Source: an uncultured archaeon
GTDB lineage: Archaea; Asgardarchaeota; Lokiarchaeia; Sigyniarchaeales; SOKP01
Assembly (NCBI GenBank): GCA_964598265.1
Contig: CAZRBD010000003.1
Coordinates: 1-62,311 of the forward strand
Length of the DNA: 62,311 nt
Reading direction: 5' to 3'
Part shown: in pieces, positions 10,457-27,153 of the stretch
Layout of the letters: every line of letters starts with the position of its first letter
Position numbering within the stretch: the stretch's first letter is position 1
The notes under the pieces: generated by a model
Seen by the model: only the letters and a program-made list of their open reading frames with translations
The model's database searches: none
What the model was told of the DNA's origin: nothing
Program-made: the position numbers and the translations under genes

Positions 10457-10483
10457 GGTAATTCCTCTTCAGAACTAATTATA

Positions 10484-11002
10484 TTAAGATTTCATTCCTG
10501 AATTTGCTATTTCTTCTTTGGCAAAATTTACCAGCCCCTTTAATTTAATTATTTTTTGTAGAAAGGCGGGAAATCTGGTAAAAGAATAAGATTGGTTAGA
10601 ACTTAAATTTCTTATAAATCCTTGTTCAAAATCAACATCTAACTTATCTCCCATATTTAAAGCTTTTAAATCAGGAAACTGAAGAATTGGAAGTCCAATA
10701 TTAATCGCGTTTCTGAAAAAAATTCGTGCAAAACTGGGAGTGATAATTAATTCTATTCCCGAAGCTTTCAAAGCGATTGGTGCTTGTTCTCGACTTGATC
10801 CACAACCGAAATTTGAACCTGCTACGAGAATTGTTGCTTGAAGTTCATTTTTTATTTGACGAAACTTTGAGTCAAAATCTTCCATACAATGTTTCGCTAA
10901 ATATTGAGGATCCGAATTTACTAAGTATCGAGCAGGAACTATTAAATCAGTATTAATATTCTCTTGAGGATATTTAATTACTATTCCTTTTATTATTTTC
11001 AC
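10484..11002 (-). CDS. leuD: 3-isopropylmalate dehydratase small subunit
   Basis: Aconitase swivel domain ([26 protein letters not shown]). 172 aa, directly downstream of the large subunit gene. Confidence 0.85.
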
Positions 11003-11023
11003 CTATTATATTGGATTTTTTTC

Positions 11024-12310
11024 TCATATACTTTCTGGAGAGGTAATAAAACCTTTTAGAGCAGAAGACGCAGCAATTGCAGGATTTGACAAATATACTT
11101 CACTCTCCTTATGCCCCATCCTCCCCACGAAATTTCTGTTTGTTGTTGATATCGCTCTTTCACCAGGAGCAAGGACTCCCATATGTCCGCCTAAACATGG
11201 ACCACAAGTAGGTGGAGATATAACCGCTCCTGCTTGAAGAAAAATTTCTATTAAACCTTCCTTAAGGGCATGAATGAGGATATGAGGAGATCCTGGAATG
11301 ATTATACATCTCACTCTAGGGTGGATCTTGTTATTTTTCATTATTCTTGCTGCAATCTGTAAATCTTCCAATCTTCCATTGGTACAAGAACCAATTACCG
11401 CTTGGTCAATTTCAATATGTAAAGCCTGTACTTCAGATATTGGTTTTATATTGCTTGGTGAGTGCGGAAGTGCTATTTGAGGTTCAATCTGAGAACAATC
11501 GATTTCAATGCTGTCATGATAAGTCGCATTATGATCATTTTCATAGGTTCTATAGTTTGAAATTCCTACATTTCTAAGATATTTTTCTGTAATCTTATCG
11601 GGAACAATGAACCCTGTTTTTGCCCCTGCTTCGATTGCCATATTACACATAGTAAAACGGTTTGCCATAGATAAATTATCGATTATTTCTCCTGTAAACT
11701 CCATAACTTTATAGGTTGCACCATCGACACCTATTTGGCCAATTGTATTTAAAATTAAATCTTTACCTGAAACCCATTTATGTAACTGACCTGAGTATAT
11801 GAACCTTATGGTTTCAGGTATTTGAAGCCAACATTTTCCGAGTGCCATTGCCATTCCTAAATCTGTAGACCCAACACCAGTAGAGAATGCTCCTAATGCA
11901 CCATATGTACAAGTATGAGAATCAGCCCCAATAATTATATCACTCGGAGCTACTAAACCTTGTTCGGGAATGAGGCAATGTTCAATTCCTACTCTTCCTA
12001 CCTCAAAATAGTGTGATATGTGATACTTAATTGCAAATTCTCTCAAAATTTTACACTGTTTTGCCGAAGCGATATCCTTATTTGGGGTAAAATGATCTGG
12101 TGTCAGTATAACCTTTTTTGTATCAAAAACACTTCTTTCTGTTCCTTTTATAATTTCTTCGAAAACTTCTATAGCTTTTGGAGCAGTTATATCATTAGCT
12201 AAGCATTTATCAATATTTACTAAAACGAAATCCCCAGCAGAGACATCCTTTCGATCGCAATGATCTCTTAAGATTTTTTCCGCAATTGTTAAATCCATAA
12301 TTTTTGGCAT
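11024..12310 (-). CDS. leuC: 3-isopropylmalate dehydratase large subunit
   Basis: Aconitase family with Fe-S ligand region GSCTNGR and CGPCLG, plus GADSHT. Confidence 0.9.
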   Translation of the reverse strand: MPKIMDLTIAEKILRDHCDRKDVSAGDFVLVNIDKCLANDITAPKAIEVFEEIIKGTERSVFDTKKVILTPDHFTPNKDIASAKQCKILREFAIKYHISHYFEVGRVGIEHCLIPEQGLVAPSDIIIGADSHTCTYGALGAFSTGVGSTDLGMAMALGKCWLQIPETIRFIYSGQLHKWVSGKDLILNTIGQIGVDGATYKVMEFTGEIIDNLSMANRFTMCNMAIEAGAKTGFIVPDKITEKYLRNVGISNYRTYENDHNATYHDSIEIDCSQIEPQIALPHSPSNIKPISEVQALHIEIDQAVIGSCTNGRLEDLQIAARIMKNNKIHPRVRCIIIPGSPHILIHALKEGLIEIFLQAGAVISPPTCGPCLGGHMGVLAPGERAISTTNRNFVGRMGHKESEVYLSNPAIAASSALKGFITSPESI

Positions 12311-12332
12311 TTCATTTTTTATTAAAAATTAA

Positions 12333-13955
12333 TTATTTTGTTGAAAGGCTTTTTTTCTTAACAATTAGATTTAATCCTTTTATAAGAGATAAAACAGAGC
12401 ACATAACAATGTCTTCATGAATCGCACTAGCTTTAACTATTATATTGCTTTCAAGATCCATGATTTCAAGGGTAACATGACCTAAAGCTTCAGTTCCACC
12501 TGTTATTGCATCAATTTGGAAATTTAAAAGTTTAATTTTGCTCATTGGTTCAAAACACTTTACTATTGCTTTACAAGATGCATCTACCGGACCTACTCCT
12601 GTTGCCGATGCTAATTTTTCCATTATATTTCCATTATTTTTTATCTTTAATCGGACTGTTGATGTGGGTGTAATTGATCCCGTCAAAACAGTTAACTCTT
12701 CAAGCTCTACATATAGTTCTTCTTTTGGTAGTTCACCCAAAACATCTTTTACAATAGCTAAAAAATCCTCTTCGGAAACCTCATGACCTTTATCACCAAA
12801 TCTCTTTATATACTTCATTATTTTCATTATTTGTTCATCATTAGGGCTTACTCCTAAATCATTAATTTTAGCCCTAAGAGCGTGGGCTCCAGTATGTTTT
12901 CCAAGTTTTATGGACTGTTTGATTATTGCTTCCACATCGTCAGAACGGTGAATTCCTATTAATTCGGGTGTAATGGGTTCATAAGTGCGTGCATGTTGAA
13001 TCATCGCATGAGCATGAATACCTGATTCATGAGCAAACGCATTCTGACCTATAAGAGGTGTTAATCGTCCGATTTTAATTTTTCCGCCACAATAACTTTC
13101 AACTAATTTAGCTGTAGGAAATATTTTTTTCGTCTTAATATTCATAGGCATTTGATATAATGCATAAAGAGACATAGCTGTCTCTTCAAAAGATGCATTT
13201 CCTGCCCGTTCACCCAAGCCTAAAATTGTTGTTTGAGCTTCTGAAGCACCATTTTCAAAACCAGCAATCGTATTTGCAACAGCTAGACCAAAATCATTAT
13301 GACAATGGACAGCTATGCGTATATTTTTGGGTAAAGCGTCATAATTCTTTTTTATAATATGTCCAAAAGCCATTGGAGAAATTGTTCCTACAGTATCAGG
13401 TATATTTATTCGAGTAGCTCCATTTTTTACAGCAGTTAGGTTAGCTTTAATTAAAAATTCTAAATCTGACCGGGTTGCATCCTCAGCTGAAAATAGTATT
13501 GTAGAGTAATGTTCTTTAGCATAAGAAACCGTCTCTCTTATTCTTTCTATCACCTCGTCTTTAGTTAAATGGAGTTTTTCTCTCATATGGAGTTCCGAGG
13601 TTGCAATAAATAAATGTATACTATCCATATCTGCCTCTATAACTTTGTCTATATCGATTTTCTTTGTTCTAGCTAAACCTATCACTTCAGAATCTAACCC
13701 CATTTTTGCAATATCTCTACAAGCTTCAAAATCACCTTGAGAAATTACAGGAAAACCGGCTTCTATAATATCAATCCCTAATTCATTAAGAGCTTGAGCA
13801 ATAGATAACTTTTCTTTGTGAGTAAAACTAATACCTGGAGTTTGTTCTCCATCACGGAGTGTTGTATCGAAAAAATAAGCTCTCTCAGGAAGATTAAGTG
13901 AACCTCTAATTTTTTCCATAATATCGGAAACAAGAATCGCATTTTTTCTAATCAT
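12333..13955 (-). CDS. leuA: 2-isopropylmalate synthase / (R)-citramalate synthase family enzyme with C-terminal regulatory domain
   Basis: HMGL-like TIM barrel (FDTTLRDGEQTPG, HCHNDFGLAVANT) plus a LeuA-dimer-type C-terminal domain. The real start could be the internal Met at 13919. Sequence alone cannot separate LeuA from CimA specificity. Confidence 0.85.
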   Translation of the reverse strand: MIRKNAILVSDIMEKIRGSLNLPERAYFFDTTLRDGEQTPGISFTHKEKLSIAQALNELGIDIIEAGFPVISQGDFEACRDIAKMGLDSEVIGLARTKKIDIDKVIEADMDSIHLFIATSELHMREKLHLTKDEVIERIRETVSYAKEHYSTILFSAEDATRSDLEFLIKANLTAVKNGATRINIPDTVGTISPMAFGHIIKKNYDALPKNIRIAVHCHNDFGLAVANTIAGFENGASEAQTTILGLGERAGNASFEETAMSLYALYQMPMNIKTKKIFPTAKLVESYCGGKIKIGRLTPLIGQNAFAHESGIHAHAMIQHARTYEPITPELIGIHRSDDVEAIIKQSIKLGKHTGAHALRAKINDLGVSPNDEQIMKIMKYIKRFGDKGHEVSEEDFLAIVKDVLGELPKEELYVELEELTVLTGSITPTSTVRLKIKNNGNIMEKLASATGVGPVDASCKAIVKCFEPMSKIKLLNFQIDAITGGTEALGHVTLEIMDLESNIIVKASAIHEDIVMCSVLSLIKGLNLIVKKKSLSTK

Positions 13956-14960: not shown

Positions 14961-14978
14961 TTCTTTTTTATTTTTTTT
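14961..14978 (+). terminator. oligo-T tract after 14454-14960
   Basis: ttcttttttattttttttaa lies immediately after the stop codon. Archaeal termination commonly uses T-runs. Confidence 0.4.
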
Positions 14979-14983
14979 AATAA

Positions 14984-16018
14984 TCAAAATCGTTTAATTT
15001 TCTTAGGATATGATCTAAAAGGAGTAATAGGTTCTAAACTTATCCAGTCTTCTTGAGTTTCTAATTTAGAGAGTGAACGTAAAAGATCAAAAGTCAACCA
15101 TCGAGTAGCTTGTGGATGGTTTATATATTCCCATAAACTGTAAGGTCCTTGTTCAGCTTTAATAAATTCTACAAACTCCGCAATTCTACTATCCTTAACA
15201 CTTGCTTCAACTCTCCAACATAAATTAAGGATATGCGCAATGTCAAATTTGGCCATATAGGTGATTCTTCCAATTGACTTCTCTAAACCAATTAGTCTAG
15301 CAATTAAAAAACCAAGGTTTGTCCTTAATTTCATATCAGTTCCTAAAATTAAATCAAGTGCTCGTTTAGCTTCTTCACTTATCCTTCTTTTAGGATGATG
15401 CGCCAAGCAAGTCAATACAGCTGTAGTATTCGAACGGCAACCCCATCGAGAATGAGCTAGGCGACGATACCCCGCAATCCCTCCATAATTTTCCGATGCA
15501 ATACCTACTGGCCACGCCCCATCATCTAAACGTTTACTTATCAACCATTCATAAGCTTGTTCTGCTCTTTTATCCTCCGCATACCCACACATTACTAATC
15601 CTAATAATGGAATTGCAGTTTGAATTGGCATCATTTGATATCCCTTTTCTTCATCAACCAATTGATTTTTACCTGGCATAAGCCATGAGCCATCTTCTTG
15701 CTGCCGTGAAAATATGAATTCTGCACCTTTTTGAATGAATGTTTTTTTTAGATCAAAACCTAAATATCCCAATCTTTGTAATGCCATTGAAGTAATTTGA
15801 ATATTATCTCCAACAGCAATGCGACTAAGGCTAAAAGAATCCCAAGCACCACTCGATTTTTGGAGTTTAATTAATTCCGTAATTAATGGATCTTCTTCAC
15901 GGAGTTTTAATAATTCCTTAACTTCAGGATCCTCATCTGATCTCTTAAGTAAATCTTTCAATACTAAATACCTCAAACACGGAGATGGATCTGAAAGTAA
16001 TAGTGGTATCCAAGTCAT
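14984..16018 (-). CDS. QW-repeat alpha/alpha-toroid protein (prenyltransferase / terpene-cyclase-like repeats)
   Basis: Spaced motifs QKSSGAWD, QQEDGSW, RLDDGAW and EQGPYSLW are typical of prenyltransferase/squalene-oxidase repeats. Its ATG overlaps the stop of the upstream 1623-aa gene (ATGA at 16015-16018). Confidence 0.55.
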   Translation of the reverse strand: MTWIPLLLSDPSPCLRYLVLKDLLKRSDEDPEVKELLKLREEDPLITELIKLQKSSGAWDSFSLSRIAVGDNIQITSMALQRLGYLGFDLKKTFIQKGAEFIFSRQQEDGSWLMPGKNQLVDEEKGYQMMPIQTAIPLLGLVMCGYAEDKRAEQAYEWLISKRLDDGAWPVGIASENYGGIAGYRRLAHSRWGCRSNTTAVLTCLAHHPKRRISEEAKRALDLILGTDMKLRTNLGFLIARLIGLEKSIGRITYMAKFDIAHILNLCWRVEASVKDSRIAEFVEFIKAEQGPYSLWEYINHPQATRWLTFDLLRSLSKLETQEDWISLEPITPFRSYPKKIKRF

Positions 16019-19000
16019 GAGATTTCCTCCAAAATATTTTTGATATAAGGAGCAGTTGGAGTGTTTCCTTTTGCTAGCGTCTCTGGTGTCCCGTGTGCTA
16101 TAAGTTTACCCCCATTTGGCCCTGCTCCGGGTCCTAATTCAATTAACCAATCGCAAGACACTAATAGATGAGGATGATGCTCGATAACTATGACAGTATG
16201 TCCATTTTGCACTAGTAATTGCAGAACGTTAACCAACTGTGAAATATCCTCTAAATGTTGTCCGATTGTAGGTTCATCTAAGATGTAAAGCGTTTTTTTT
16301 ATTGATTTTTTACTTAATTCTTTAACGATCTTTAGCCTTTGTGCTTCACCACCCGAAAGTGTGTGAGCGGGTTGATTTAATTGTAGATAACCCAACCCTA
16401 CATCCTGAGTGAATTTTAATTTTGATATAATATTATCGTGTCCATCGAATAATTCAAAAGCCTCATCAATGGTAAGATTATTTACTTCTGGTAAAGTAAT
16501 GTCATTGTATCTAATCTGCCACGCTTCAACTTGAAAACCTGATCCTTTGCATACTTCACATGTTTCCACAATATCAGGTAAGAATTTCATGTCTACTTTG
16601 ATAATTCCACGCCCTTTACAAACTGTGCATCTTTTAGCAAGATTTTTTTCACTTAAACCCAATACCTTTGCATCCTCTGATTCTGCAAATAATTTTAAAA
16701 TCGGGCGTTCTAAATCTAGGAATTTTAATGGGTTTCCGAGTTTCGCCTTTGCTTGATCAATGACAATTGTTTGAGGTAAAGCTCCTTCAATGCTATCATG
16801 TTCACCTGGATCCATTGGCTCTCTCGCTACAGAGGTAGTGTGCTTTATAGGGACGAGAGCCCTTGCTAATGTGTCAATTAATAATGTACTCTTACCAGAA
16901 CCAGATACTCCACATAATCCTACTAATAAACCAAGTGGAATTTCGATTAAATCCCCTTTAAGATTATTAGCTGTTGCACCATAAATCTTAAGCCAATTTT
17001 TGGGTTTCCGACGTGGTGTTTTTACTAAAATTCTCTTTTTCTTATTCAACCAGTCAGCTGTAATAGTTTTTGTTTCCTTTATTTTATTAAGAGAACCTTC
17101 AGCTACGATTTTACCTCCATGAACTCCCGCACCAGGCCCCATATCCATAATATAATCTGCGTTTTCGATAAACATTGGATCATGCTCAATGGTAATTACT
17201 GTATTTCCTTTATCTCTTAAATTTAGCAATACATCGAGCAGAGCTTGAAGCTCTGATGGGTGCAAACCTCTCGAAGGTTCGTCCAATAACACAGTGAGAG
17301 ATGTGAGATCACTTCCAAGCAATCCTGCTAACTTAACGCGTTGAGCCTCTCCTGCTGAAAGGCTTTCAGCAACCCTGTTAAGATTTAAATATCCCAACCC
17401 CGTTTGAATTAAAAATTCTAAACGGGAAATTATTATTTTAAAGCTATTCTTAACGAATTCATACGTAATATTATCTAAAGATTGTCTTTTTAAAATTTTA
17501 TGGAGTTTTATTAAAGGAAGCTCGGATAATTGGTGAATATTAAATCCAAATAAACTAATTGCAAGATATTGAGGACGTAATTTAGTCCCATTACATTCTT
17601 CGCACGGCTCATTATCCGTATAGGTTCCTCCTACATCCCAATCCCTTAACCATTGTTCGTAAAAACCTTTAAATAAAAGAATTTTTTTATATCTCTGTCC
17701 CTTTCTGTTTTCAATTTCTACTGTTAAAGGTTTTTCATCCCCATATAAGAAAGCATTTTTAGCATCTTCTGACATTTCATTCCAAGGAGTTTCAAATCTA
17801 TCAAAACCATAACGATCTGCAATTGCTTGAATAAGATAATACCCGACATTATAAGGCTTACATAAGTATCCCTTTGGAAAAAAACCAGGGGAATACATTG
17901 CTCCTCCACAAAGTGGTTTGTCAGGATGAACAATAAGTTTATTTGGGCTAGGAATTTGAAGGGATCCTACTCCATGACACTTTAAACATGCGGCAGAATA
18001 ATTAGAAGTGATAAAATGTTTAGGTTTTGGAATTGGGATTAATATATTACACTTAATGCAATAAAAGTCTTCCATTCTCTCCATCCAATGATTACAATTA
18101 GGACACATAAGTTCTCCCATATAGGATAAGAGATTTGCTAAATGGAGACTTATATCAGTGACTCTCCCAATTGTATAGCGTACATTAAAAAACCATCCAT
18201 GAACTATCTTTTCTGGTGTAATTAGAGTGGTTATACCAAGGCCGTTGATATTTTCAACTTGTGCTTCGGACGTTTCCTTCGTGCCTTGTCTCTCATACAT
18301 AGATAATGTTTCTAAATATCGGCGTCGGGCTTCCGCTTCTATTGTGTCCATAATTAAGCTCGATTTTCCAGATCCCGATATTCCAGTGACAACGGTGAAT
18401 ACTCTTTTAGGGATTTTAACATTTATATTTTTTAAGTTGTGTATATGAGCGTTTTGAATAACAATTTCTGCCGAAGATGTTTTTCTTTTTATTCTATCTT
18501 TTGTTAATGGTACTATGGACTGTTCCTCCCATAATGCTCTTCCCGTTAAAGAGTCTTTTGCCTTCATCAATCCTTCTAGTGGACCCTCATATACCAAATT
18601 TCCTCCTTTGGGACCAGACCCCGGACCTAAATCTATTATCCAATCCGCAGCTTTTATAACATCAATGTTATGCTCTACAACAACGATTGTAGCTCCTATT
18701 TTTATAAGTTTATCTAATACTGTTAAAAGCCCTGCTAAATCTTGTGGATGAAGACCTGTTGAGGGTTCATCGAGAATGACTAGTTGATTTTTCAATGTAT
18801 CTCTTCCAAGATATTTTGATAATTTTACTCTCTGAGCTTCACCGCCAGAAAGTGTAGGAGATGGCTGTCCTAGAGATAAGTAACCTAAACCAAGCTCGTT
18901 CATTGCTTTAAGCATGCGCTTCGCTGCTGTAAGTTCTCTTTCTGATAAACGATTTTCCTTTTCAAATAATTTTATAATTTCAGAAATTGGTAGATTATAA

Positions 19001-20886
19001 AATTCTGCAATATTGTATTCTTTTTCTCCAAATTTTACATACTCTGATAAAATTTCTTCACAGAAACGTTTTCCATCGCAATCAGAGCAAATAATCCAAT
19101 TGGAAGGTAAATAACGCATCTTTATTTCAAGTGCGCCCATCCCATTACATGTTTCACAAGCACCTTCGGTAGTATTAAATGAATAAAATGTGGGTTTAAA
19201 CCTAGTTGACTTCCCAAATAATTTTCGGATGCTATCTGCAATTTTTGTATAAGTCGCGGGATTAGATCTTGGATTTTTACCAATAGGATCTTGATTTACC
19301 AGTATGGGCTTAATATTAGGATATTCAAGTGCTTTACATCCAATAGACTTTTTTCTCTTGAGGGATTCAAATAATACATCTTCTATTAATGTACTTTTCC
19401 CCGATCCCGATACTCCAGTTACAATCGTTAGCCTATTTAAGGGTAATTTCACGTTAATGTTTTTTAAATTATGCATTGTAGCACCCTTAATTTCGAGAAA
19501 GGTTTTTGATTCAGAACGTCGTTTTGGGATTGGTACTTGTTTCCTCAAGCTAAAATATAACCCTGAAGGGGTATCTACTTTCCATAATTCAGCAGGAGTC
19601 CCAGTAAATATAATTTCACCACCTTCATTCCCTGCTCCAGGACCCATATCAATCACATAATCTGCTGATATGGCTGCTTGCCGGTCATGCTCAATATAAA
19701 TTACAGGACCTGCAAGTTTCTGGAAAAGTGGTATTAATCTTGCGACATCAGCAGGATGTTGACCAATTGTCGGTTCATCAAGAATGTGGGTCACATCCTC
19801 CAGTTCACTCAATATTGCAATAGCTAATCTAACTCTTTGAGACTCTCCTCGAGATAAGGTAGGAGAAACTCTGTCTAAAGTCAAGTACTCTAAACCCACG
19901 GTGTGCAATGCCATTAGTCGTTTTTTTATTTCTTGTAATAATCGATCAGAAATCGGTATATCCTCTCTAGAAAAATGAAAGACAAGATCTCCTACTGATT
20001 TTGTTAATATCTTGGGAAATAATAATCCTTCCCAAGTAACATTGGATGCTAAAGGATGATATCCTGTCTCATTGCAATTCCTACATCCTTTTCCCTTACA
20101 GTGTGGGCATGTTCGCGTAAAATGTTTAGGATCAAGATCTCCGAACCATGTCCCACATTCAACACAAGCAGGAATTCGAGAAATGAGGATTGATTTTGTT
20201 ATACTTTCAATTAATAAGGAGCCTGCACCTATTCCAGAGATGTTCTGAACAATTTCTCGAATATCATTAATTGAACTGCTTGAATCTGCTTGTCCTATTT
20301 TAATTTGAATGTCATGAGGTTCATTGGGATCTAATCTATCCGTTAATGGATTTCCATCCACTTTTAGTGCTTCAACACTAAATTCCTTCTTTAAAAGCTC
20401 AAGAAGGGTTTGATGACTTCCCTTAACATTCTTAACTAGAAGAGCTGAGATTTTTAAGGATTCCGTTTTTATCAGACCATATATTTTGGCGACAATCTCA
20501 TCTTCTTTTAACACAGACAAGTAAGCACCACATACGTGACATTTTCGATCTCCAAATCTAGCATATAAAAGTTTCAATAAAGGAAGAAGTCCCGTCGCAG
20601 ATGCTACAATGGAATTAGGATTACGATTGAGAAGGTTTTGACCTAGTGCTATCGTAGGTCCTAATCCTGAAATGGAGTCTACTTTTGCGGGATTTAAATT
20701 TATCTGGTCTTTATTAACTGAAAATACCTCTAAGAAACGCCGACGAGCTTCTTTATATAATATGTCAAAAATAAGTGATGTCTTTCCTGACCCAGAAACT
20801 CCAGTCACCACCGTGAGTCCATCTCTAATGTTCACGTCGACTGCCTTCAAATTGTGTTCCCGAGCCCCTCGAATCTTGATTTCCAT
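16015..20886 (-). CDS. tandem-fused double UvrA-like protein (four ABC ATPase domains, 1623 aa)
   Basis: Four Walker A motifs (GVSGSGKTSL, GVSGSGKSTL, GISGSGKSSL, GVSGSGKSTL). Four ABC signatures (LSRGESQRVRL, LSGGEAQRVKL, LSAGEAQRVKL, LSGGEAQRLKI). Four Walker B motifs (ILDEPT, ILDEPS, LLDEPS, ILDEPT). UvrA-type Cys4 modules are present (CHVCG, CVECG..CPHCKGKG, CETCNGMG..CSDCDGKR, CPNCN..CIKCN, CLKCHGVG, CEECNGTK, CTVCKGRG..CEVCKGSG). Both halves open with the UvrA N-terminus pattern I(R/Q)xAxxHNLKxxxVxI. Confidence 0.85.
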   Translation of the reverse strand: MEIKIRGAREHNLKAVDVNIRDGLTVVTGVSGSGKTSLIFDILYKEARRRFLEVFSVNKDQINLNPAKVDSISGLGPTIALGQNLLNRNPNSIVASATGLLPLLKLLYARFGDRKCHVCGAYLSVLKEDEIVAKIYGLIKTESLKISALLVKNVKGSHQTLLELLKKEFSVEALKVDGNPLTDRLDPNEPHDIQIKIGQADSSSSINDIREIVQNISGIGAGSLLIESITKSILISRIPACVECGTWFGDLDPKHFTRTCPHCKGKGCRNCNETGYHPLASNVTWEGLLFPKILTKSVGDLVFHFSREDIPISDRLLQEIKKRLMALHTVGLEYLTLDRVSPTLSRGESQRVRLAIAILSELEDVTHILDEPTIGQHPADVARLIPLFQKLAGPVIYIEHDRQAAISADYVIDMGPGAGNEGGEIIFTGTPAELWKVDTPSGLYFSLRKQVPIPKRRSESKTFLEIKGATMHNLKNINVKLPLNRLTIVTGVSGSGKSTLIEDVLFESLKRKKSIGCKALEYPNIKPILVNQDPIGKNPRSNPATYTKIADSIRKLFGKSTRFKPTFYSFNTTEGACETCNGMGALEIKMRYLPSNWIICSDCDGKRFCEEILSEYVKFGEKEYNIAEFYNLPISEIIKLFEKENRLSERELTAAKRMLKAMNELGLGYLSLGQPSPTLSGGEAQRVKLSKYLGRDTLKNQLVILDEPSTGLHPQDLAGLLTVLDKLIKIGATIVVVEHNIDVIKAADWIIDLGPGSGPKGGNLVYEGPLEGLMKAKDSLTGRALWEEQSIVPLTKDRIKRKTSSAEIVIQNAHIHNLKNINVKIPKRVFTVVTGISGSGKSSLIMDTIEAEARRRYLETLSMYERQGTKETSEAQVENINGLGITTLITPEKIVHGWFFNVRYTIGRVTDISLHLANLLSYMGELMCPNCNHWMERMEDFYCIKCNILIPIPKPKHFITSNYSAACLKCHGVGSLQIPSPNKLIVHPDKPLCGGAMYSPGFFPKGYLCKPYNVGYYLIQAIADRYGFDRFETPWNEMSEDAKNAFLYGDEKPLTVEIENRKGQRYKKILLFKGFYEQWLRDWDVGGTYTDNEPCEECNGTKLRPQYLAISLFGFNIHQLSELPLIKLHKILKRQSLDNITYEFVKNSFKIIISRLEFLIQTGLGYLNLNRVAESLSAGEAQRVKLAGLLGSDLTSLTVLLDEPSRGLHPSELQALLDVLLNLRDKGNTVITIEHDPMFIENADYIMDMGPGAGVHGGKIVAEGSLNKIKETKTITADWLNKKKRILVKTPRRKPKNWLKIYGATANNLKGDLIEIPLGLLVGLCGVSGSGKSTLLIDTLARALVPIKHTTSVAREPMDPGEHDSIEGALPQTIVIDQAKAKLGNPLKFLDLERPILKLFAESEDAKVLGLSEKNLAKRCTVCKGRGIIKVDMKFLPDIVETCEVCKGSGFQVEAWQIRYNDITLPEVNNLTIDEAFELFDGHDNIISKLKFTQDVGLGYLQLNQPAHTLSGGEAQRLKIVKELSKKSIKKTLYILDEPTIGQHLEDISQLVNVLQLLVQNGHTVIVIEHHPHLLVSCDWLIELGPGAGPNGGKLIAHGTPETLAKGNTPTAPYIKNILEEIS

Positions 20887-20903
20887 TTTCTTTAAACAGT
20901 TAT

Positions 20904-23408
20904 TTATTTGAGATAAGGACCAGTTTTAGAGTTTTTATTACTTTTAATTTTTTCTGGAGTACCTTTCGTAATAATTTCCCCCCCTTTAGGACCACCTTCA
21001 GGCCCTAATTCAATAATGTAATCAGTAAAGGATAGAATGTCAGGGTCATGCTCTATAATAATCACACTATTTCCTTCTTGGACTAATTGCTCTAATAATT
21101 CCATTAATTTCCTGACATCATAAAAAGATAATCCAATCGTAGGTTCATCTAAAATATAAAGAGATTTTGATTTTCGAGCACGTCCCAGTTCTTTTGCGAG
21201 TTTTATTCGCTGTGCTTCTCCTCCACTGAGGGTAGGAGCTGGTTGACCTAAGGTGATATATCCCATTCCTATTTCTTCAAGAATCTTAAGAATTTTCAAA
21301 ATACCCGGTTGTGATTTAAATAAGTCGAGTGCCTCGGAAACTGTTTGGTCTAACACGTCTGCGATTGTTTTTCCTTTATATTTTATTTCTAAAATTTCAG
21401 TTTTATATCTTTGACCTTTACATTCTTTGCACGGTATTGTTATGGCACTTAAAAATGATACTTGAATATCTTTTATTCCATCCCCTTTACAAATTGGACA
21501 CCTTCCTCTATCTGAATTGAAAGAAAAGTGCCCTGCTACAAATTTTTTCTTTATTGCTTCGGGCAATTTTGCAAAGACGTTTCTTATTTTATCCCAAATG
21601 CCAATATATGAGATTGGCATAGATCTTCTTGTCCTCCCTATAGGTCTTTGATTCACAACAATAACCTCATCAATATTTTCCCAACCATGTATGGATCCAG
21701 TAAATTCTAAAAGATCCTCTCCATTCACAAATTCCTCCTCAGATTCTTGAGTTGTTTTACCTTTTTTTACGGCTTCCCGCGTAAAATGTGGTTTTAGTAA
21801 TGGAACGAGTGTATCCTGAATTAATGAACTTTTACCTGAACCAGACACCCCACATATGCCAACCATCATTCCTAATGGGATTTTCACTGAGATATTCTTG
21901 AGATTGTTAGTGCTAACATTCGTGATCGAAAGATATTTAGTATCATTATTGGTTATTCTACGGTCTTTTATGGATTTTTCTGGCAATGAAATTTTTCCAG
22001 CCATGAATTGGCCTGTATGTGAATCTTTAACTTTAGTGATATCTTCAAGTTTACCATGAAATACTATCTCCCCTCCTTTAATACCTGCATCTGGGCCAAT
22101 ATCAATAATCTCGTCCGCTATTTCTATAAACCGTTTATCATGTTCGACAACAATTACAGTATTACCTTGTTCTTTTAGTTTAATTAGTAGTTGAATCAAA
22201 GATTCTTTCTCTTTTTCATGTAAACTCATACTTGGTTCATCAAGAATATATATGAGAGAATCGATGCCTGCATCTAAATGCGTCATAAGTGCTAATCTTT
22301 GCTGTTCTCCGCCACTAAGAGTGGGAAGAGTTCTATTGAGATGCATGTAAGATAACCCAACGTTTACCATATTTTGGAGGCGTTTGAGAATTTTATCAAT
22401 CAATGCTTTCCCTTGCTCCGTCTTTATTTGCTTATCACTCAGGTTTTCTAAGAATTCAATTATATCATCTATTACTATAATAGCTAATTCTCCAATATGT
22501 TTTCCTGCGATTTTTATATTTCTTGCTTGATCATTAATTCTAAATCCTTGGCATTCATCGCATTTTTGCTTGGTCATATAATTCTTGGTTATTTTATTTC
22601 TCCGATATGTACTTACGCTAGTACTCATAGCTCTCTCTAAGTGAGGGATAATCCCTTCGTATACTCTTTGTTTCATAATTCCTGAGAAATTTTTAGACTC
22701 CATTCTGAATGATAATCTTTTTCCTCCACTCCCGTGAAGATATATATTTCGGATCTTTTCTGGTAAGTCTTTATAAGGTGTATCTATATCGAAATCATAA
22801 AAACCCCCCAATTGTTCAACCCATCTAGTTTGATCAGCAAAACAAGCAGAACCTGCTTTTGTTATCTCGACAAGGTTTCTATTATAGTCTTGTACTATAT
22901 TATCTTCTGTGAAATGCATTGTATATCCTCTCCCTTTACATTCTAAGCACATTCCTGAAGGCTCATTGAAAGAGAAATGTTTAATCTCCACACGATCTCT
23001 CACTAAACCGCACAATTCGCACTCTAAGTTCTCATCTACTGAGATTTTACAAATAGGACACAATAATTCACCTTCAATGGCATATAACATTCTAAGTAAG
23101 TTGTAAATTATTGTCTTAGTGCCGATAGTTGATCTAGGATTGAATGCTCTCGTCGTCCTCTGTTCTACTGCTATGGTTGGACTTAAACCTTCAATTAAAT
23201 CGAATGGTTTTTCATCTTCTAATTTAGGAGGAAATCCAATTGCTTGGAGATATCGATTCATTCCTTCATTAAATATGATATCGAATGCTAAACTTGATTT
23301 TCCCGAACCAGAAACACCTGTTATTAGTATAATTTTCTTTTTCGGGATATTAACATTGATATTTTTTAGGTTATGAATCCTTGCCCCTACAACTCTAATT
23401 TCATCCAT
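20904..23408 (-). CDS. UvrA-like ABC ATPase lacking the UvrB-binding domain (class II / UvrA2-like, 834 aa)
   Basis: MDEIRVVGARIHNLKNINVNIP, two Walker A motifs (GVSGSGKSSL twice), signatures LSGGEQQRLAL and LSGGEAQRIKL, and zinc modules. Only about 30 aa separate CPICK...CELCG from FSFNEPSGMCLECKGRG, the position where canonical UvrA carries its roughly 140-aa UvrB-binding domain. Confidence 0.85.
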   Translation of the reverse strand: MDEIRVVGARIHNLKNINVNIPKKKIILITGVSGSGKSSLAFDIIFNEGMNRYLQAIGFPPKLEDEKPFDLIEGLSPTIAVEQRTTRAFNPRSTIGTKTIIYNLLRMLYAIEGELLCPICKISVDENLECELCGLVRDRVEIKHFSFNEPSGMCLECKGRGYTMHFTEDNIVQDYNRNLVEITKAGSACFADQTRWVEQLGGFYDFDIDTPYKDLPEKIRNIYLHGSGGKRLSFRMESKNFSGIMKQRVYEGIIPHLERAMSTSVSTYRRNKITKNYMTKQKCDECQGFRINDQARNIKIAGKHIGELAIIVIDDIIEFLENLSDKQIKTEQGKALIDKILKRLQNMVNVGLSYMHLNRTLPTLSGGEQQRLALMTHLDAGIDSLIYILDEPSMSLHEKEKESLIQLLIKLKEQGNTVIVVEHDKRFIEIADEIIDIGPDAGIKGGEIVFHGKLEDITKVKDSHTGQFMAGKISLPEKSIKDRRITNNDTKYLSITNVSTNNLKNISVKIPLGMMVGICGVSGSGKSSLIQDTLVPLLKPHFTREAVKKGKTTQESEEEFVNGEDLLEFTGSIHGWENIDEVIVVNQRPIGRTRRSMPISYIGIWDKIRNVFAKLPEAIKKKFVAGHFSFNSDRGRCPICKGDGIKDIQVSFLSAITIPCKECKGQRYKTEILEIKYKGKTIADVLDQTVSEALDLFKSQPGILKILKILEEIGMGYITLGQPAPTLSGGEAQRIKLAKELGRARKSKSLYILDEPTIGLSFYDVRKLMELLEQLVQEGNSVIIIEHDPDILSFTDYIIELGPEGGPKGGEIITKGTPEKIKSNKNSKTGPYLK

Positions 23409-23461
23409 ATTTTACCATATTTTCAATCAGTTTTAAACAAAAATACATATATAATTTTCTA

Positions 23462-23788
23462 TTAGACAGAATTTCTTATTGTTTCCCAAGCTTTAGTTTC
23501 TAAATTAGACCATTCCTGAATTGAAGCAGTTTCTGTAATTTTTACACTCCCTCCTAAACAACTTAAGACCCTTTCAAAAACTTCCGTCTTTTTCACTACC
23601 AATCCTAGTATCATTGGGAAAGGCATTAGTTTCATATAATAGTAAAAAAAGCCTAACCCTGAGCATAATCCTAAGATCCTAGGTTCTGAAAGTTCAATGT
23701 TATAATACGCAAGAACTTTGCTTAGACTTGACAACTGACAATTTGCACCAGACATATGCTTAAAATCTTCTATAACTATTCTAACCAA
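23462..23788 (-). CDS. short BtrH_N-like (papain/C39-like fold) paralog, N-terminal part only
   Basis: FKHMSGANCQLSSLSKVLAYYNIELSEPRILGLCSGLGFFYY parallels IGCHCESSAMRDLFEFYGYTITEAMAFGLDATMGFGFF of the 377-aa neighbour. It ends before the HFGGH segment. Confidence 0.45.
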   Translation of the reverse strand: MVRIVIEDFKHMSGANCQLSSLSKVLAYYNIELSEPRILGLCSGLGFFYYYMKLMPFPMILGLVVKKTEVFERVLSCLGGSVKITETASIQEWSNLETKAWETIRNSV

Positions 23789-23801
23789 TTTTTACTCACT
23801 T

Positions 23802-24227
23802 CTATTTTATATTCGGATTTATTTTATTTCCACAATCAAAACATTCTGCATCGTGAATACAAATTTCACCATTACACTTAGGACAAGTGTATAGTTTTTC
23901 TTGCTCTTGGAGCCATTTTTCAGCCCCTATTATTTTAATCCTTTTTAAATTGCCTATAAAACTTAGAAAATATTTTTCTTGATAGCGACTATCAATGTTT
24001 TTTAAATTCTGGCAAGGGAATTTATCGCACTCGAAACAAAATTCAATTTCTTTTTTCCTTAGCATTAGACAATCTCTCTTAATGAAAGAACAATTTTTAT
24101 TTCGAATTCTACAGCCTTTACAACCTGATTTACGTCCTCTCTCTTTTAATAGATCTTTCTTTAATAATAAGTAGGATCTACACGCACCACAGTACATTCC
24201 ACAAGGAGCTGCTAAATTATTTTTCAC
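23802..24227 (-). CDS. Cys-rich DUF3795-like protein
   Basis: The N-terminal motif APCGMYCGACRSY and multiple further CxxC pairs (CKGCRIRNKNC, CFECDKFPC, CPKCNGEIC, CFDCG) match my memory of the DUF3795 family. Confidence 0.6.
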   Translation of the reverse strand: MKNNLAAPCGMYCGACRSYLLLKKDLLKERGRKSGCKGCRIRNKNCSFIKRDCLMLRKKEIEFCFECDKFPCQNLKNIDSRYQEKYFLSFIGNLKRIKIIGAEKWLQEQEKLYTCPKCNGEICIHDAECFDCGNKINPNIK

Positions 24228-24241
24228 TCTTTTTTCACCAC

Positions 24242-25375
24242 TTATAGTTTAATTTTTGATAATTTTTTGAATAAACCCTCTTCATTGGTAAGTATGAATA
24301 GAGCAATATTGTGTAATTCGTCTAAATCTATATGGGCTAAACAATCGTCATTGTATTCTTCCGAGACATTTTTTAAAGTCTCTGCTATTAAAGTCCATTT
24401 TTGAGCTACTTCAGTTATTATTGGTATAACACTTTCAATGATCTTAAATTCTTCCTTACTCCACGCTCTTTGGCCTTCTCTTAACTCCGGGTGATTAAGT
24501 AATTCTTCCAAGAATATCTTGTATAAACTCCGGAAAGCTGCGCCACCGGTCCCCCATGTTTCAATATATCCATGTAATAATTCAAACATCGTTTTGGCTA
24601 GTGAAACATCCTGACCTGATGCATTTTTTCTTTTTCCTTGCAATTTCTCTTTCCATTCAAGGATAGAGTTAACAAATAATTTTAACCCTTGAACTCCATT
24701 ATTATTTACGGAAGGTCTTAACATGTTATTTACTACTTTTTGGATTGATAATTTCACTCCTGCTGCTAACGGAGGATGCTTTCCATCTGGACGTCTCGAC
24801 ATGGAGAACTGAGCATTACTCGGCTGCATAAACTTTGGTCCAAATTCCGAGTTTCTTCCTTTCTTAAGAATACTAATTGATACTTCTTGAAATCCCTTAA
24901 ATTCGGAATCTCCCACATATGCAACTTCTTTTTCTTCATCATAACCTGCGAGCGAAATAGCATGACCGCCAAAATGGAATTCCCCTTGATGCTCAAAATA
25001 AGGTAAATACCCCATATCAATCTTCAGGATTAATGGAATATTTTGATCTAACATTTTTTTTGACTCTTCCCAAGCCTTATCAGCACTGGAAAAGGATTGT
25101 TTCCTGAAAATGATTCCTAATAATCGACAAGCTAATGAATTTGGTTCAATTATTCCTTGCTTACCTCCTAGAAAAAATTGAACTTCAGACTCAGGAATAA
25201 AAGACATAAGATTGGTAGTATCGAAAAATCCAAATCCCATTGTGGCATCCAAGCCAAATGCCATTGCCTCTGTAATAGTATATCCATAGAATTCAAATAA
25301 ATCTCTCATAGCAGATGACTCACAATGACACCCAATTCTGTGGATAAAGTTATTTACCATATGCTTCTGGACCAA
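24242..25375 (-). CDS. BtrH N-terminal domain + DUF4872-like protein
   Basis: GCHCESSAMRDLFEFYGY...FGLDATMGFGFF...IPLILKIDMGYLPYF...HFGGHAISLAGYDEEKEVAYVGDS matches the remembered BtrH_N consensus (Cys...His of a papain-like fold). It has a roughly 180-aa helical C-terminal domain. The 5' end overlaps the PadR gene by 26 nt. Confidence 0.65.
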   Translation of the reverse strand: MVQKHMVNNFIHRIGCHCESSAMRDLFEFYGYTITEAMAFGLDATMGFGFFDTTNLMSFIPESEVQFFLGGKQGIIEPNSLACRLLGIIFRKQSFSSADKAWEESKKMLDQNIPLILKIDMGYLPYFEHQGEFHFGGHAISLAGYDEEKEVAYVGDSEFKGFQEVSISILKKGRNSEFGPKFMQPSNAQFSMSRRPDGKHPPLAAGVKLSIQKVVNNMLRPSVNNNGVQGLKLFVNSILEWKEKLQGKRKNASGQDVSLAKTMFELLHGYIETWGTGGAAFRSLYKIFLEELLNHPELREGQRAWSKEEFKIIESVIPIITEVAQKWTLIAETLKNVSEEYNDDCLAHIDLDELHNIALFILTNEEGLFKKLSKIKL

Positions 25376-25943
25376 CTTTACCTCCTCCCTTTTTAATTTC
25401 TTCTAACACCCAGTTTAGAAACTCAACGTCAATTCCTAATATTTTAATGGGATGTAAAAACAAACCCCGTACATTTAATGGCATATGAGAGCTTTCATCT
25501 AGCATTTCCTCCAATTCTTTTTTATGTTTTATAATAGTATTTAAAGAATAGGATATTGATTCAATTTGCTCCTCGTGAGATAATATTGGAAGCATAGAAA
25601 AAGCTACATAAAAATCTTCATCATTTTTTCCTATAAATTCTTTTATAACATTTACAACCTTTTCCCTTAAAACTCTGGAACCTTTTTCTGTTATATTATA
25701 GACCTTAAGTGTTCTATTATCAACTTCTTCTATCCATTTATCTGTTAATCCTTTTTTTTCTAAACTCTTGATTACTCGATAAATCGAAGATTTACCTATA
25801 TTAGTCCAATTTCTCATGCCACGTTCTTCAATCCTTTTATTGATATTATAGGCATGACTAGGATTTTCAGCTATCAATCCCAGAACAACGAATTCAGAAT
25901 GATTCAGTGATATCATATTGTTCCTTTCTTCCAGGGGAGACAT
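25350..25943 (-). CDS. PadR family transcriptional regulator (long form with C-terminal domain)
   Basis: VVLGLIAENPSHAYNINKRIEERGMRNWTNIGKSSIYRVIKSLEKKGL is a typical PadR wHTH. It is the first gene of the co-directional cluster. Confidence 0.8.
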   Translation of the reverse strand: MSPLEERNNMISLNHSEFVVLGLIAENPSHAYNINKRIEERGMRNWTNIGKSSIYRVIKSLEKKGLTDKWIEEVDNRTLKVYNITEKGSRVLREKVVNVIKEFIGKNDEDFYVAFSMLPILSHEEQIESISYSLNTIIKHKKELEEMLDESSHMPLNVRGLFLHPIKILGIDVEFLNWVLEEIKKGGGKVGPEAYGK

Positions 25944-25970
25944 TACTTTGTTAGTTAATAGTTGAATAAT

Positions 25971-25990
25971 ATGGTCTCATATGAGACCAT
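25971..25990. promoter_or_regulatory. perfect 20-bp palindrome ATGGTCTCATATGAGACCAT, candidate PadR operator
   Basis: Read directly from the sequence. It lies 28-47 nt upstream of the PadR ATG (25943) and downstream of a TATA-like tttaaatataaa on the minus strand (about 26016-26027). An extra half-site CATATGAGA is repeated at 25993-26001. Confidence 0.5.
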
Positions 25991-26442
25991 TCCATATGAG
26001 AATATAAGGACAATTTATATTTAAATATATTTGTTTTAATAAAATTTATTTTAAAAAGTCAAAAAACTTTCTCTAAACAGCTTAAACTATTTATAGCGGT
26101 GGCAGTATAAAAAATAGCTAGGTTGAGGTTAACCTCAATACCCTCCCGCCATTTTTTGTATAAGAATGAATGTTTTAATCCATCTATCTCTTGGATTTTA
26201 ATGGTCGAATACCATTTCCAATCAGGAATGATAATATTTTGGAATACACCACATCTATATGGTTTTCCAAAAAAAGTACTTTACTTTTAATAAGAACTCA
26301 AAAATTTAAAGGAATTGTGGAAAATGGTAAACTTCGTAATTACTTAGAAGTTATAATTTATACATATGTTAATATTATTGCCTTTTTAATTTCATTAATT
26401 ACACTTTCAATTTTAAGACATAATTATAGTAGTGGTATAGTC

Positions 26443-27153
26443 ATGACAAGTATTTCTAATTCTACTCTTTCTAATCAAATCGGAACCTTAAAAGAAAAAT
26501 CCCTCCATGCTGAGTTAAAAGATTGGCTTAAAATACCTGGAGATAAGATTGAGACACCTATTGATGGTTATATAATTGATATTGTAAGAGGGAAACTTCT
26601 TATTGAAATCCAAACTCAAAACTTTTCCGCAATCAGGAAAAAACTTGAAAACCTTCTTAAACGTTATGAAGTTCGGTTAATATACCCAATAGTGCAAAAA
26701 AAATGGATTGTTTGTTTGGATCAAACCGGAGCACAAGTAACTAGGAGAAGATTATCTCCTAAACATAATTCATATGCAAATATTTTTGAGGAGTTAATCT
26801 GGATTCCTCATATTATTATGAATTCTAATCTGTCAATTGAAGCATTAATTGTTCATGTAGAAGAAACAAGGCTTAACAACGGTAAAGGGAGTTGGAGAAG
26901 AAAAGGTTGGAGTATCGTAGATCGAAAATTGGTTAATATAATAGACCAAAAGAGATTTCATGAACCTAAGGATTTTTTAACCTTAATTCCTAAAGACTTA
27001 AAATTTCCATTTACTAATTTTGAACTTTCTAAGGCTTTAAAAAAATCAATTGGATTAGCTCGAAAAATGACATATTGTTTGAGAAAAATAAATAATCTGA
27101 AAGTGATTGGTAAAAAAGGAAAAGCCTTTTTATATGACTTGAAACTTACCTAA
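26443..27153 (+). CDS. PD-(D/E)xK-like nuclease-fold protein (hypothetical)
   Basis: SLHAELKDWLKIPGDKIETPIDGYIIDIVRGKLLIEIQTQNFSAIRKKL contains a D...D-x8-E-x-Q arrangement resembling restriction-endonuclease-like cores. The ORF track opens at a TTG (26191), but the first ATG (26443) directly precedes the conserved-looking core. Confidence 0.45.
   Translation: MTSISNSTLSNQIGTLKEKSLHAELKDWLKIPGDKIETPIDGYIIDIVRGKLLIEIQTQNFSAIRKKLENLLKRYEVRLIYPIVQKKWIVCLDQTGAQVTRRRLSPKHNSYANIFEELIWIPHIIMNSNLSIEALIVHVEETRLNNGKGSWRRKGWSIVDRKLVNIIDQKRFHEPKDFLTLIPKDLKFPFTNFELSKALKKSIGLARKMTYCLRKINNLKVIGKKGKAFLYDLKLT

Follow-up and report, generated by a model that had tools for sequence, protein, structure and literature searches.

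The block of seven minus-strand genes at positions 14,984 to 25,990 of contig CAZRBD010000003.1, from the assembly GCA_964598265.1 of an uncultured Lokiarchaeia archaeon (the whole 62,311-nucleotide stretch analysed, part of a metagenomic scaffold of 85 kb, is referred to below as the window), is a composite of two separable modules lying side by side. Module A opens with a gene for a PadR-family regulator, continues with a BtrH-like papain-fold enzyme and variable cassettes and closes with a class II UvrA, here termed UvrA2. Module B consists of two genes, which encode UvrA4, a single-chain double UvrA with four nucleotide-binding domains (NBDs), and an alpha/alpha-toroid protein; these two genes are shown to be co-inherited. 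Gene context leads us to favour, with a probability of roughly 0.45, an inducible response to compounds that bind or damage DNA as the function.

Conservation and separability of the two modules

The block was compared with 172 retrieved related loci (2.09 Mb in total, numbered with the prefix L). A toroid-profile scan using one genome per species yielded 203 genomes, from which the best 80 loci were kept and then searched by tblastn with the seven window proteins, and a metagenome scan with the BtrH-like protein gave 80 loci. The seven co-directional open reading frames (ORFs) that an earlier note on this DNA had described were reproduced with longest-ORF starts, as were the successive junctions of -26, 14, 13, 53, 17 and -4 nt, and profile searches of all seven proteins (Pfam, NCBIfam) returned every domain that had been named. 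The junctions of -26 and 13 nt are uncertain, since the assembly's gene caller starts the BtrH gene at an ATG five codons further down (372 aa, overlap -11) and gives the short BtrH ORF a length of 97 aa. In reading order the block contains:

25350..25943, minus strand: PadR-family winged-helix regulator, 197 aa, head of module A (PF03551)
24242..25375, minus strand: BtrH_N + DUF4872 papain-fold enzyme, 377 or 372 aa (PF14399, PF16169)
23802..24227, minus strand: DUF3795 protein, 141 aa, variable cassette (PF12675)
23462..23788, minus strand: remnant of a second BtrH_N + DUF4872 gene (blastn against L008, L017, L025 and L007)
23409..23461, minus strand: deletion scar at the site of the methyltransferase gene of sister loci (comparison with sister loci)
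20904..23408, minus strand: class II UvrA (UvrA2), 834 aa, final gene of module A
16015..20886, minus strand: UvrA4, single-chain double UvrA, 1623 aa, four NBDs
14984..16018, minus strand: alpha/alpha-toroid protein, 344 aa, QW-type repeats

The coupling of UvrA4 to the toroid is close to invariant. The C-terminus of UvrA4 is encoded upstream of the toroid gene in 75 of the 76 loci that have at least 300 nt of sequence on this side, with a gap of at most 60 nt in 67 of the 76, and each of the 12 junction heptamers met most often, which together cover 37 loci, is a start/stop overlap of the ATGA or GTGA type; in the window the junction is tcATGAc, the toroid start overlapping the UvrA4 stop. 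Identities of the two proteins to their window counterparts rise and fall together (r = 0.976; n = 48 loci with full-length matches). The pair is found in Promethearchaeota, Hermod-, Hod-, Heimdall- and Thorarchaeota, Bathyarchaeia, Chloroflexi/Anaerolineae, Aminicenantes and one Patescibacteria bin, and toroid homologues with a named source likewise come from Asgard archaea as well as from Chloroflexi and others. Beyond Loki-type genomes the other five genes are absent and the flanks share clade-level synteny only.

Module A is conserved in its own right: PadR stands directly upstream of BtrH in 61/63 loci, UvrA2 is present in 16 of the 20 loci having at least 5.5 kb downstream of BtrH, and a minimal form, PadR-BtrH-UvrA2, occurs in L149 and L157. 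Homologues of the BtrH family with a named source are from Asgard archaea only, to which module A is restricted as far as seen. The fixed PadR-BtrH head with UvrA2 closing it, together with the UvrA4-toroid pair, thus identifies a conserved neighbourhood and not a chance cluster.

What did not stand is the claim of one seven-gene system with six UvrA ATPase domains under a single PadR operator. Sequence extends past UvrA2 in 18 loci, seven of which continue with UvrA4 whilst 11 lack it, and UvrA4-toroid is found without module A in Bathyarchaeia, Heimdall- and Thorarchaeota, Chloroflexi and others; hence, the PadR/BtrH head and the UvrA4-toroid pair each recur, while the proposed trio of UvrA2, double UvrA and toroid is not fixed. 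The gene directly after UvrA2 in L089 and L133 encodes a glyoxalase/bleomycin-resistance (VOC) protein, and the downstream genes of L089 match in order and size those past the toroid in L022: the UvrA4-toroid pair thus behaves like a segment gained or lost between UvrA2 and the VOC gene. Sequence identities are also mosaic, with heads 70–74% and UvrA4-toroid 59% identical to the window in L042, L043 and L047, and values of 70% for the head and 86–91% for UvrA4-toroid in L140, which indicates two parts with separate histories that recombine independently.

Architecture of the UvrA proteins and the toroid

UvrA2 carries the motifs GVSGSGKS, LSGGE, ILDEP and EHD twice each and scores 868.7 bits against TIGR00630 (cut-off 729.8). 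Alignment by phmmer to Geobacillus UvrA (2R6F) places residues 1–125 on residues 21–148 and residues 125–834 on residues 265–953, leaving ~115 residues of 2R6F (~149–264), which form the UvrB-binding domain, with no counterpart in UvrA2; the original description of an 834-aa UvrA lacking this domain is thereby confirmed. Two intact NBDs, the insertion domain (PF17755) and the Zn3 module are retained.

The 1623-aa UvrA4 is indeed a four-NBD fusion, with Walker A sites at residues 29, 491, 835 and 1326, the signature motifs LSRGE, LSGGE, LSAGE and LSGGE, and a Walker B motif and H-loop in all four NBDs. Each half aligns full-length to UvrA2 with 31–35% identity. The protein does not simply comprise two class II units. 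Only the C-half is class II-like, with an insertion domain (PF17755 at 1011–1078) but no UvrB-binding domain. In the N-half (1–~812), a UvrB-binding-like domain is present at ~117–240: residues 3–267 align unbroken to residues 26–303 of canonical UvrA, UvrB-binding domain included, and the subsequent jump of the alignment (267 to 310 in UvrA4 against 303 to 475 in UvrA) reveals that it is here the insertion domain that is missing. The combination of UvrB-binding and insertion domain that marks each protomer of a class I UvrA is consequently found neither in UvrA2 nor in either half of UvrA4. With one UvrB-binding-like and one insertion domain split between its halves, UvrA4 can be described as an asymmetric single-chain UvrA pseudo-dimer and, judged from its sequence, corresponds to a UvrA dimer in covalently linked, asymmetric form; it has two Zn3 modules and four ATP sites, all of them apparently competent.

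This architecture, including the UvrB-binding-like segment, is kept in all 49 full-length orthologues, although the segment shows a mean identity to the window of 0.445 compared to 0.6–0.73 for the NBD regions and is the least conserved part besides the inter-half linker. The ABC ATPase core, the Zn3 hairpins and the insertion domain are shared with the canonical UvrA2-UvrB2 sensor, a homologue of the UvrB-binding domain is present in the UvrA4 N-half only, and a dimer-like arrangement of four ATP sites would be expected (PMC7835731, which also summarises the roles of the UvrB-binding and insertion domains in canonical UvrA). In contrast to the canonical dimer, UvrA4 is one polypeptide with one UvrB-binding-like and one insertion domain instead of two of each, and its coupled partner gene encodes an alpha/alpha toroid rather than UvrB; no linked uvrB or uvrC was seen.

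Tandem UvrA fusions of more than 1600 aa are also represented by the Chlamydia-type duplicated UvrA (NF001885/PRK00635), although with 896 bits against a cut-off of 3054 UvrA4 is not a member of that family. Duplicated UvrA proteins go under the review label 'class III', and our literature search found no report of a toroid partner for them.

The toroid protein is a SQHop_cyclase_C-like alpha/alpha barrel (AlphaFold2 pLDDT 78.7, pTM 0.84), whose top Foldseek matches are drimenyl-diphosphate synthase, squalene-hopene cyclase, MstE, CD109/A2M and LanCL2. A single barrel with QW-type repeats is a trait common to the alpha/alpha-toroid superfamily (class II terpene cyclases, prenyltransferase beta subunits, LanC, A2M/C3d), from which the protein differs in its low structural similarity (TM-score at most 0.5), in the absence of DxDD, of the thioester motif CGEQ and of a second domain, and in its own motifs and basic C-terminal tail. 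The squalene-hopene cyclase profile matches only the QW-repeat residues 74–170. No DxDD motif is visible in an alignment of 17 toroid sequences or in its conserved columns, and the two-domain beta-gamma barrel that accompanies this motif in class II terpene cyclases is likewise lacking, the toroid being a single barrel of 344 aa.

Across these 17 sequences, drawn from archaea and bacteria, mean column identity is 73%. Invariant are an HSRWGCRS loop, Cys194, Cys204, His208 and Cys267, further the motifs DPR and RLDDGxWP, and the C-terminal tail is conserved as WISLEPxTPF..YPKKxKRF; the loops 116–127 and 177–193 combine the highest conservation with low model confidence. Among the orthologues the isoelectric point ranges between 5.9 and 9.2, a spread that speaks against a general role in DNA binding. 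A genetic tie to a UvrA, as seen here, is not known to have been reported for any toroid family, and our literature search likewise found no such report.

A paralogous family, toroid-2, shares the W-G-(x)-C loop, DPR, RLDDG..WP and the N-terminal motifs with the UvrA4-linked toroid and is devoid of the WISLEPxTPF..YPKKxKRF tail. Toroid paralogues in general were considered as UvrA partners and rejected, given three stand-alone toroid-2 genes (~62% identity) with no UvrA nearby: coupling to UvrA is confined to the toroid-1 subfamily. Toroid-2 proteins (~338 aa; 2854 matches; 60–80% identity among Asgard members) are mostly stand-alone, with examples at L089:8520-9536, L124:11144-12160 and L012:872-1888, and several are named 'nitrogen fixation protein NifH' by NCBI, which looks like a misannotation. 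On a JGI contig (L169:1-7842), a toroid-2 gene adjoins an integrase and several genes of the defence type (GmrSD_N, TIR_2, HEPN_Swt1, Prim-Pol and MCM); this stretch is probably an integrated element with no relation to the UvrA modules.

Regulation, cassettes and decay of module A

Upstream of the PadR gene, the following elements were recognised:

26018..26025, minus strand: putative archaeal TATA box TTTAAATA (coding strand) of the PadR promoter, read from sequence
25990..26004: operator half 1, imperfect palindrome TATTCTCATATGGAA (coding strand)
25971..25990: operator 2, perfect 20-bp palindrome ATGGTCTCATATGAGACCAT

On the coding strand, the putative TATA box is followed by 13 nt, the imperfect palindrome, the perfect palindrome, 27 nt and the PadR ATG, so that the perfect palindrome occupies the region 28–47 nt upstream of the ATG, where the transcription start is expected. 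It is the sole perfect palindrome of 20 bp in the window (0.21 expected from Markov shuffles) and, as pointed out in the earlier note, lies at 25971–25990; we now find that it recurs in orthologous PadR promoters. In most orthologous PadR upstream regions a TTTAAATA/TTTATATA box stands ~13–20 nt upstream of the palindromes, sister loci showing one or the other box and then one or two palindromes. The commonest palindrome of the sister loci is TATTCTCATATGAGAATA, and many carry it in perfect form where the window has the imperfect copy; lineage-specific variants such as CATTCTTATATAAGAATG also occur. The core TCTCATATGAGA was detected with at most one mismatch in 19/61 orthologous upstream regions and in 9/1220 control windows, the corresponding values for at most two mismatches being 27/61 and 29/1220.

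Archaeal repressor sites usually cover the start site just downstream of the TATA box. The arrangement suggests that TTTAAATA acts as a TATA box and that PadR binds to the palindromic operator. It resembles that of the PadR/LmrR repressors of drug- and phenolic-stress operons, in which a winged-helix gene likewise heads its own presumed operon and a palindromic operator overlaps the promoter; the differences lie in the archaeal promoter, with its TATA box and the operator over the expected start, and in an operator sequence that varies between lineages. A second perfect palindrome, of 16 bp (TTGAGGTTAACCTCAA; window 26123–26138), is located in the same divergent intergenic region, ~50 nt upstream of a divergent 320-aa ORF (26191–27153) that has no Pfam match; chance alone would give the window ~2.8 palindromes of 16 bp.

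The PadR domain is assigned at 51.9 bits (cut-off 27; residues 20–94). In the BtrH-like protein, PF14399 scores 103 bits and PF16169 68.9 bits, and the residues Cys18/His138/Asp156 are invariant across both paralogue groups. The DarH equivalog model gives 106.8 bits, far under its cut-off of 300, and the protein is thus not DarH itself; no gene for an acyl carrier protein was seen in the operon. One homologue (P0264, 468 aa, 72% identical to the window protein), encoded on a JGI contig of 3493 nt that from its length is probably L091, bears an N-terminal HNH endonuclease domain (PF01844, E = 4e-11) and is either a true fusion or a gene-calling artefact.

The cassettes between BtrH and UvrA2 are drawn from a set comprising DUF3795 (one to two copies, two subtypes), a second BtrH_N + DUF4872 gene, S-adenosylmethionine (SAM)-dependent methyltransferases of several subtypes and a toroid paralogue (338 aa, 23–26% identical to the UvrA4-linked toroid). 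DUF3795 is present in 15/22 complete BtrH-UvrA2 intervals, at times in two copies. The window protein contains 15 Cys in 141 aa, with an N-terminal CGMYCGAC motif (Cx3Cx2C) and a zinc-ribbon-like C-terminal pair, CPKC...CFDC, which suggests an Fe-S or zinc protein; in the literature DUF3795 was met in one incidental mention only. A VOC gene is found downstream of the toroid, on the same strand, in 18 loci.

Parts of this inventory have been lost from the window. Between DUF3795 and UvrA2, sister loci (e.g. L008, L017 and L025) have genes for a BtrH paralogue of 389 aa and a class I SAM methyltransferase of 223 aa. According to blastn, the window keeps the first ~270 nt of this BtrH gene and then its last ~50 nt up to an identical stop codon, and following the gap it matches the last few bases of the methyltransferase gene and then the UvrA2 start: ~844 nt of the second BtrH gene are missing and the ~680-nt methyltransferase gene is gone. 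As both ends of the sister-locus gene and its stop are retained, the short BtrH_N ORF, formerly listed as a paralogue, is instead an in-frame internal-deletion remnant of the BtrH_N + DUF4872 gene, encoding ~90 N-terminal and ~19 C-terminal residues; only the N-terminal part of BtrH_N is matched, and the triad is left without its His and Asp. The gap ahead of UvrA2 amounts to 53 nt in the window, where it is the deletion scar, compared to ~15 nt in L008. A TATA-like TTATATAT lies within this scar, which may conceivably act as an internal promoter for UvrA2.

Past the toroid the window has no VOC gene and in its place a convergent 168-aa ORF with no family match. The T-run noted earlier downstream of the block is present at 14961–14983; as it lies on the plus strand, it fits this convergent plus-strand gene instead of the operon. 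Just beyond the convergent ORF, a leucine-biosynthesis-type cluster is encoded at 9392–13955 on the minus strand (HMGL-like/LeuA, aconitase large and small subunits, isopropylmalate dehydrogenase), which sets the operon among housekeeping genes and in no obvious island. An Rfam scan of the whole window found no RNA family above threshold.

Function and relation to known systems

A role in the removal of toxins or lesions, as put forward in the earlier note, gains from the wider context, on which the assignment of function depends: besides the VOC genes, DrrAB-like exporters and AlkZ-like glycosylases were encountered. Pairs of ABC_tran and ABC-2 membrane genes of the DrrAB type adjoin UvrA genes in two loci, in one of which (L038:110-2295) the pair replaces the PadR-BtrH head, divergent and directly upstream of UvrA2, and in the other of which (L035:12038-13998) it is positioned downstream of the toroid. 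Three loci of Chloroflexia and one of Thorarchaeota have a gene for an AlkZ-like DNA glycosylase (PF06224) no more than 10 kb from UvrA4-toroid (L067:1016-2236, L068:911-2224, L082:473-1624 and L086:13091-14311); in the three Chloroflexia loci the gene is on the same strand, with Methyltransf_32 and metallophosphoesterase genes directly upstream of UvrA4. The azinomycin self-resistance enzyme belongs to the AlkZ family (PMC9040887). For the UvrA paralogue Ecm16, resistance to echinomycin, a DNA bis-intercalator, depends on its ATPase and does not require UvrA, UvrB, UvrC or UvrD (PMC9328131). We favour an inducible xenobiotic response because of this precedent and because the Loki-type companions (PadR, a papain-fold acyltransferase or hydrolase, methyltransferases, VOC) resemble genes of resistance loci.

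PadR/LmrR-type drug sensors are repressors that are released by a small-molecule ligand. In the mechanism that we propose, PadR would sit on the two adjacent palindromes just past the TATA box and repress its own operon until released in the same manner by a small molecule. The BtrH-like enzyme and the cassettes (methyltransferase, second BtrH, DUF3795, toroid paralogue, VOC) would then modify or sequester the compound, whilst UvrA2 would detect DNA distorted by a drug and use ATP hydrolysis to clear it, with no recourse to canonical nucleotide excision repair (NER), as has been demonstrated for Ecm16 and proposed for DrrC (PMC9328131); such UvrB/UvrC-independent drug tolerance is suggested for UvrA2 by analogy. 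Module B may be an autonomous, horizontally moving two-gene machine that in this case has come to lie between UvrA2 and the downstream genes. The toroid would be its obligate partner, probably docking on UvrA4, for which the retained UvrB-binding-like domain is a candidate site. Its aromatic-rich barrel might serve to trap the ligand or adduct once this is displaced, or to process it; otherwise the toroid might be the downstream effector in place of UvrB. Ligand induction, the contact between UvrA4 and the toroid and the nature of the substrate as drug or lesion are the steps that we infer.

Several observations weigh against such a response. UvrA4-toroid is conserved in the manner of a housekeeping function (50–73% identity across domains), and repair of an endogenous lesion would thus fit equally well with it as drug resistance. 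Both UvrA proteins are closest to class I UvrA (688 bits for UvrA2, 579 for UvrA4), their scores against Ecm16 (437 and 458) and Deinococcus UvrA2 (528 and 432) being lower, and UvrA4, with its UvrB-binding-like domain retained, might just feed canonical UvrB. The toroid matches generic superfamily members only and displays no recognisable catalytic motif. A Pfam census of 115 flanking proteins in non-Loki loci detected no conserved third partner of UvrA4-toroid; ABC_tran was counted six times, methyltransferases four times and Fpg twice, so that drug and repair genes make up a minority of these neighbours, and ABC transporters are common everywhere. For the pair outside Asgard genomes, the support from gene context is thin. 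In the window itself, the methyltransferase, the second BtrH and the glyoxalase are absent or broken, and a single transcript for the block is predicted from gene spacing.

If UvrA4-toroid is considered separately, it could represent a UvrB-independent surveillance machine common to Asgard archaea, Bathyarchaeia and Chloroflexi, in which the pseudo-dimer locates distorted or ligand-bound DNA and hands this site via its UvrB-binding-like domain to the toroid as effector, be it a new adduct- or ligand-removing enzyme or a trap; we put this forward tentatively, as something possible that we would not expect to prove correct. Alternatively, UvrA4 could be a specialised front end of NER that loads the genome's own UvrB at a particular class of lesion, endogenous or environmental, with the toroid as lesion-specific cofactor or chaperone, UvrA2 as backup sensor and no drug involved. 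The unbroken alignment of UvrA4 3–267 with canonical UvrA, the presence of the UvrB-binding-like region in every full-length orthologue, the affinity of both proteins to class I UvrA over Ecm16, the strong housekeeping-like conservation across phyla and the Fpg and AlkZ-like glycosylases near some loci all speak for this. Yet canonical UvrB binding is impossible for UvrA2 and for the UvrA4 C-half, the UvrB-binding-like region is, save for the linker, the least conserved of UvrA4, the strictly coupled toroid would be left with no role, and the Loki-type context (PadR, VOC, methyltransferase, acyltransferase) is typical of xenobiotic responses. In addition, tblastn with an E. coli UvrB probe returned no UvrB-like match in the window, for which the earlier note had remarked upon the absence of uvrB, or in the 172 related loci, although this is a weak negative. 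Taken together, we consider a front end for NER unlikely.

Two further explanations appear considerably less probable. The UvrA-like ATPases could sense foreign or modified DNA in a defence against viruses or mobile elements, much as the MADS system might with its own UvrA-like proteins, with the toroid and BtrH as effectors, as foreshadowed by the foreign-DNA role in the earlier note. UvrA2 and UvrA4 do match PADLOC mad3 strongly (1e-73 and 3e-120) and also mad8 of the MADS system, a variable cassette region in the middle of module A is reminiscent of defence loci, and an HNH nuclease domain appears fused to one BtrH homologue. These matches nonetheless reflect generic UvrA/ABC homology (mad3, mad8, NsnB, AriA and others); the other five proteins match no MADS model, with weak winged-helix matches for PadR their only hits, and neither a nuclease, a methyltransferase-kinase set nor another MADS partner exists in the window, so that the full mad set is not present. 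The organisation and conservation are not defence-like either: the pair is highly conserved in varied neighbourhoods, here close to leucine-biosynthesis genes, and searches of viral, phage and plasmid collections turned up no copy and only a weak match to squalene-hopene cyclase. A defence role is therefore improbable, and we assign the lowest likelihood of all to a small biosynthetic cluster with self-resistance, in which BtrH, methyltransferase, DUF3795 and toroid would make a DNA-binding metabolite and the producing cell would be shielded from it by the UvrA proteins. Both BtrH and DarH are acyltransferases of biosynthetic pathways (PMC3949708), UvrA-like genes mark gene clusters for DNA intercalators (PMC10413001) and the best fold matches of the toroid are class II terpene cyclases; against this, no core synthase (polyketide, non-ribosomal peptide, prenyl-diphosphate or terpene synthase) is encoded in the window or in the conserved neighbourhood, the toroid has no DxDD and resembles squalene-hopene cyclase in its QW scaffold only, the cassettes are interchangeable and dispensable, with two deleted in the window, and UvrA4-toroid stands alone in most phyla.

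Among known systems, UvrA2 has counterparts in the drug-resistance proteins Ecm16, DrrC and TrsM (class IIa, Streptomyces), which are likewise two-NBD UvrA proteins with no UvrB-binding domain in a regulated, resistance-like context (PMC9328131); drrABC is echoed by the DrrAB-type exporters that adjoin the modules in L038 and L035. UvrA2 differs from the Ecm16 type in being archaeal, in lying outside a biosynthetic cluster, in its greater proximity to class I UvrA, in keeping the first zinc-module cysteines and in being accompanied by BtrH-like and other cassettes and, in this case, by UvrA4-toroid. All components thus belong to known families and UvrA paralogues acting outside NER are known. 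In the literature, not all journals of which were covered, we found no description of a coupling between UvrA and a toroid or squalene-cyclase-like protein, of this double-UvrA architecture or of a PadR-BtrH-UvrA2 unit, and from this absence of reports the UvrA4-toroid pair appears to be undescribed.

UvrA paralogues that lack the UvrB-binding domain have long been puzzling as to how they act without UvrB, and few of them, such as Ecm16 and DrrC, have a demonstrated role. Were the function to be ordinary NER, the value of the present system would be reduced to that of an architectural curiosity. As it stands, a strictly co-inherited non-UvrB partner of a UvrA-type sensor, present in ~200 species-level genomes from both prokaryotic domains, makes the question of what replaces UvrB a testable one, and a natural asymmetric single-chain UvrA 'dimer' could serve to separate the roles of the paired UvrB-binding and insertion domains. 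For the Asgard archaea, PadR-controlled, cassette-like genes of the resistance type would be of relevance to chemical warfare in anoxic sediments.

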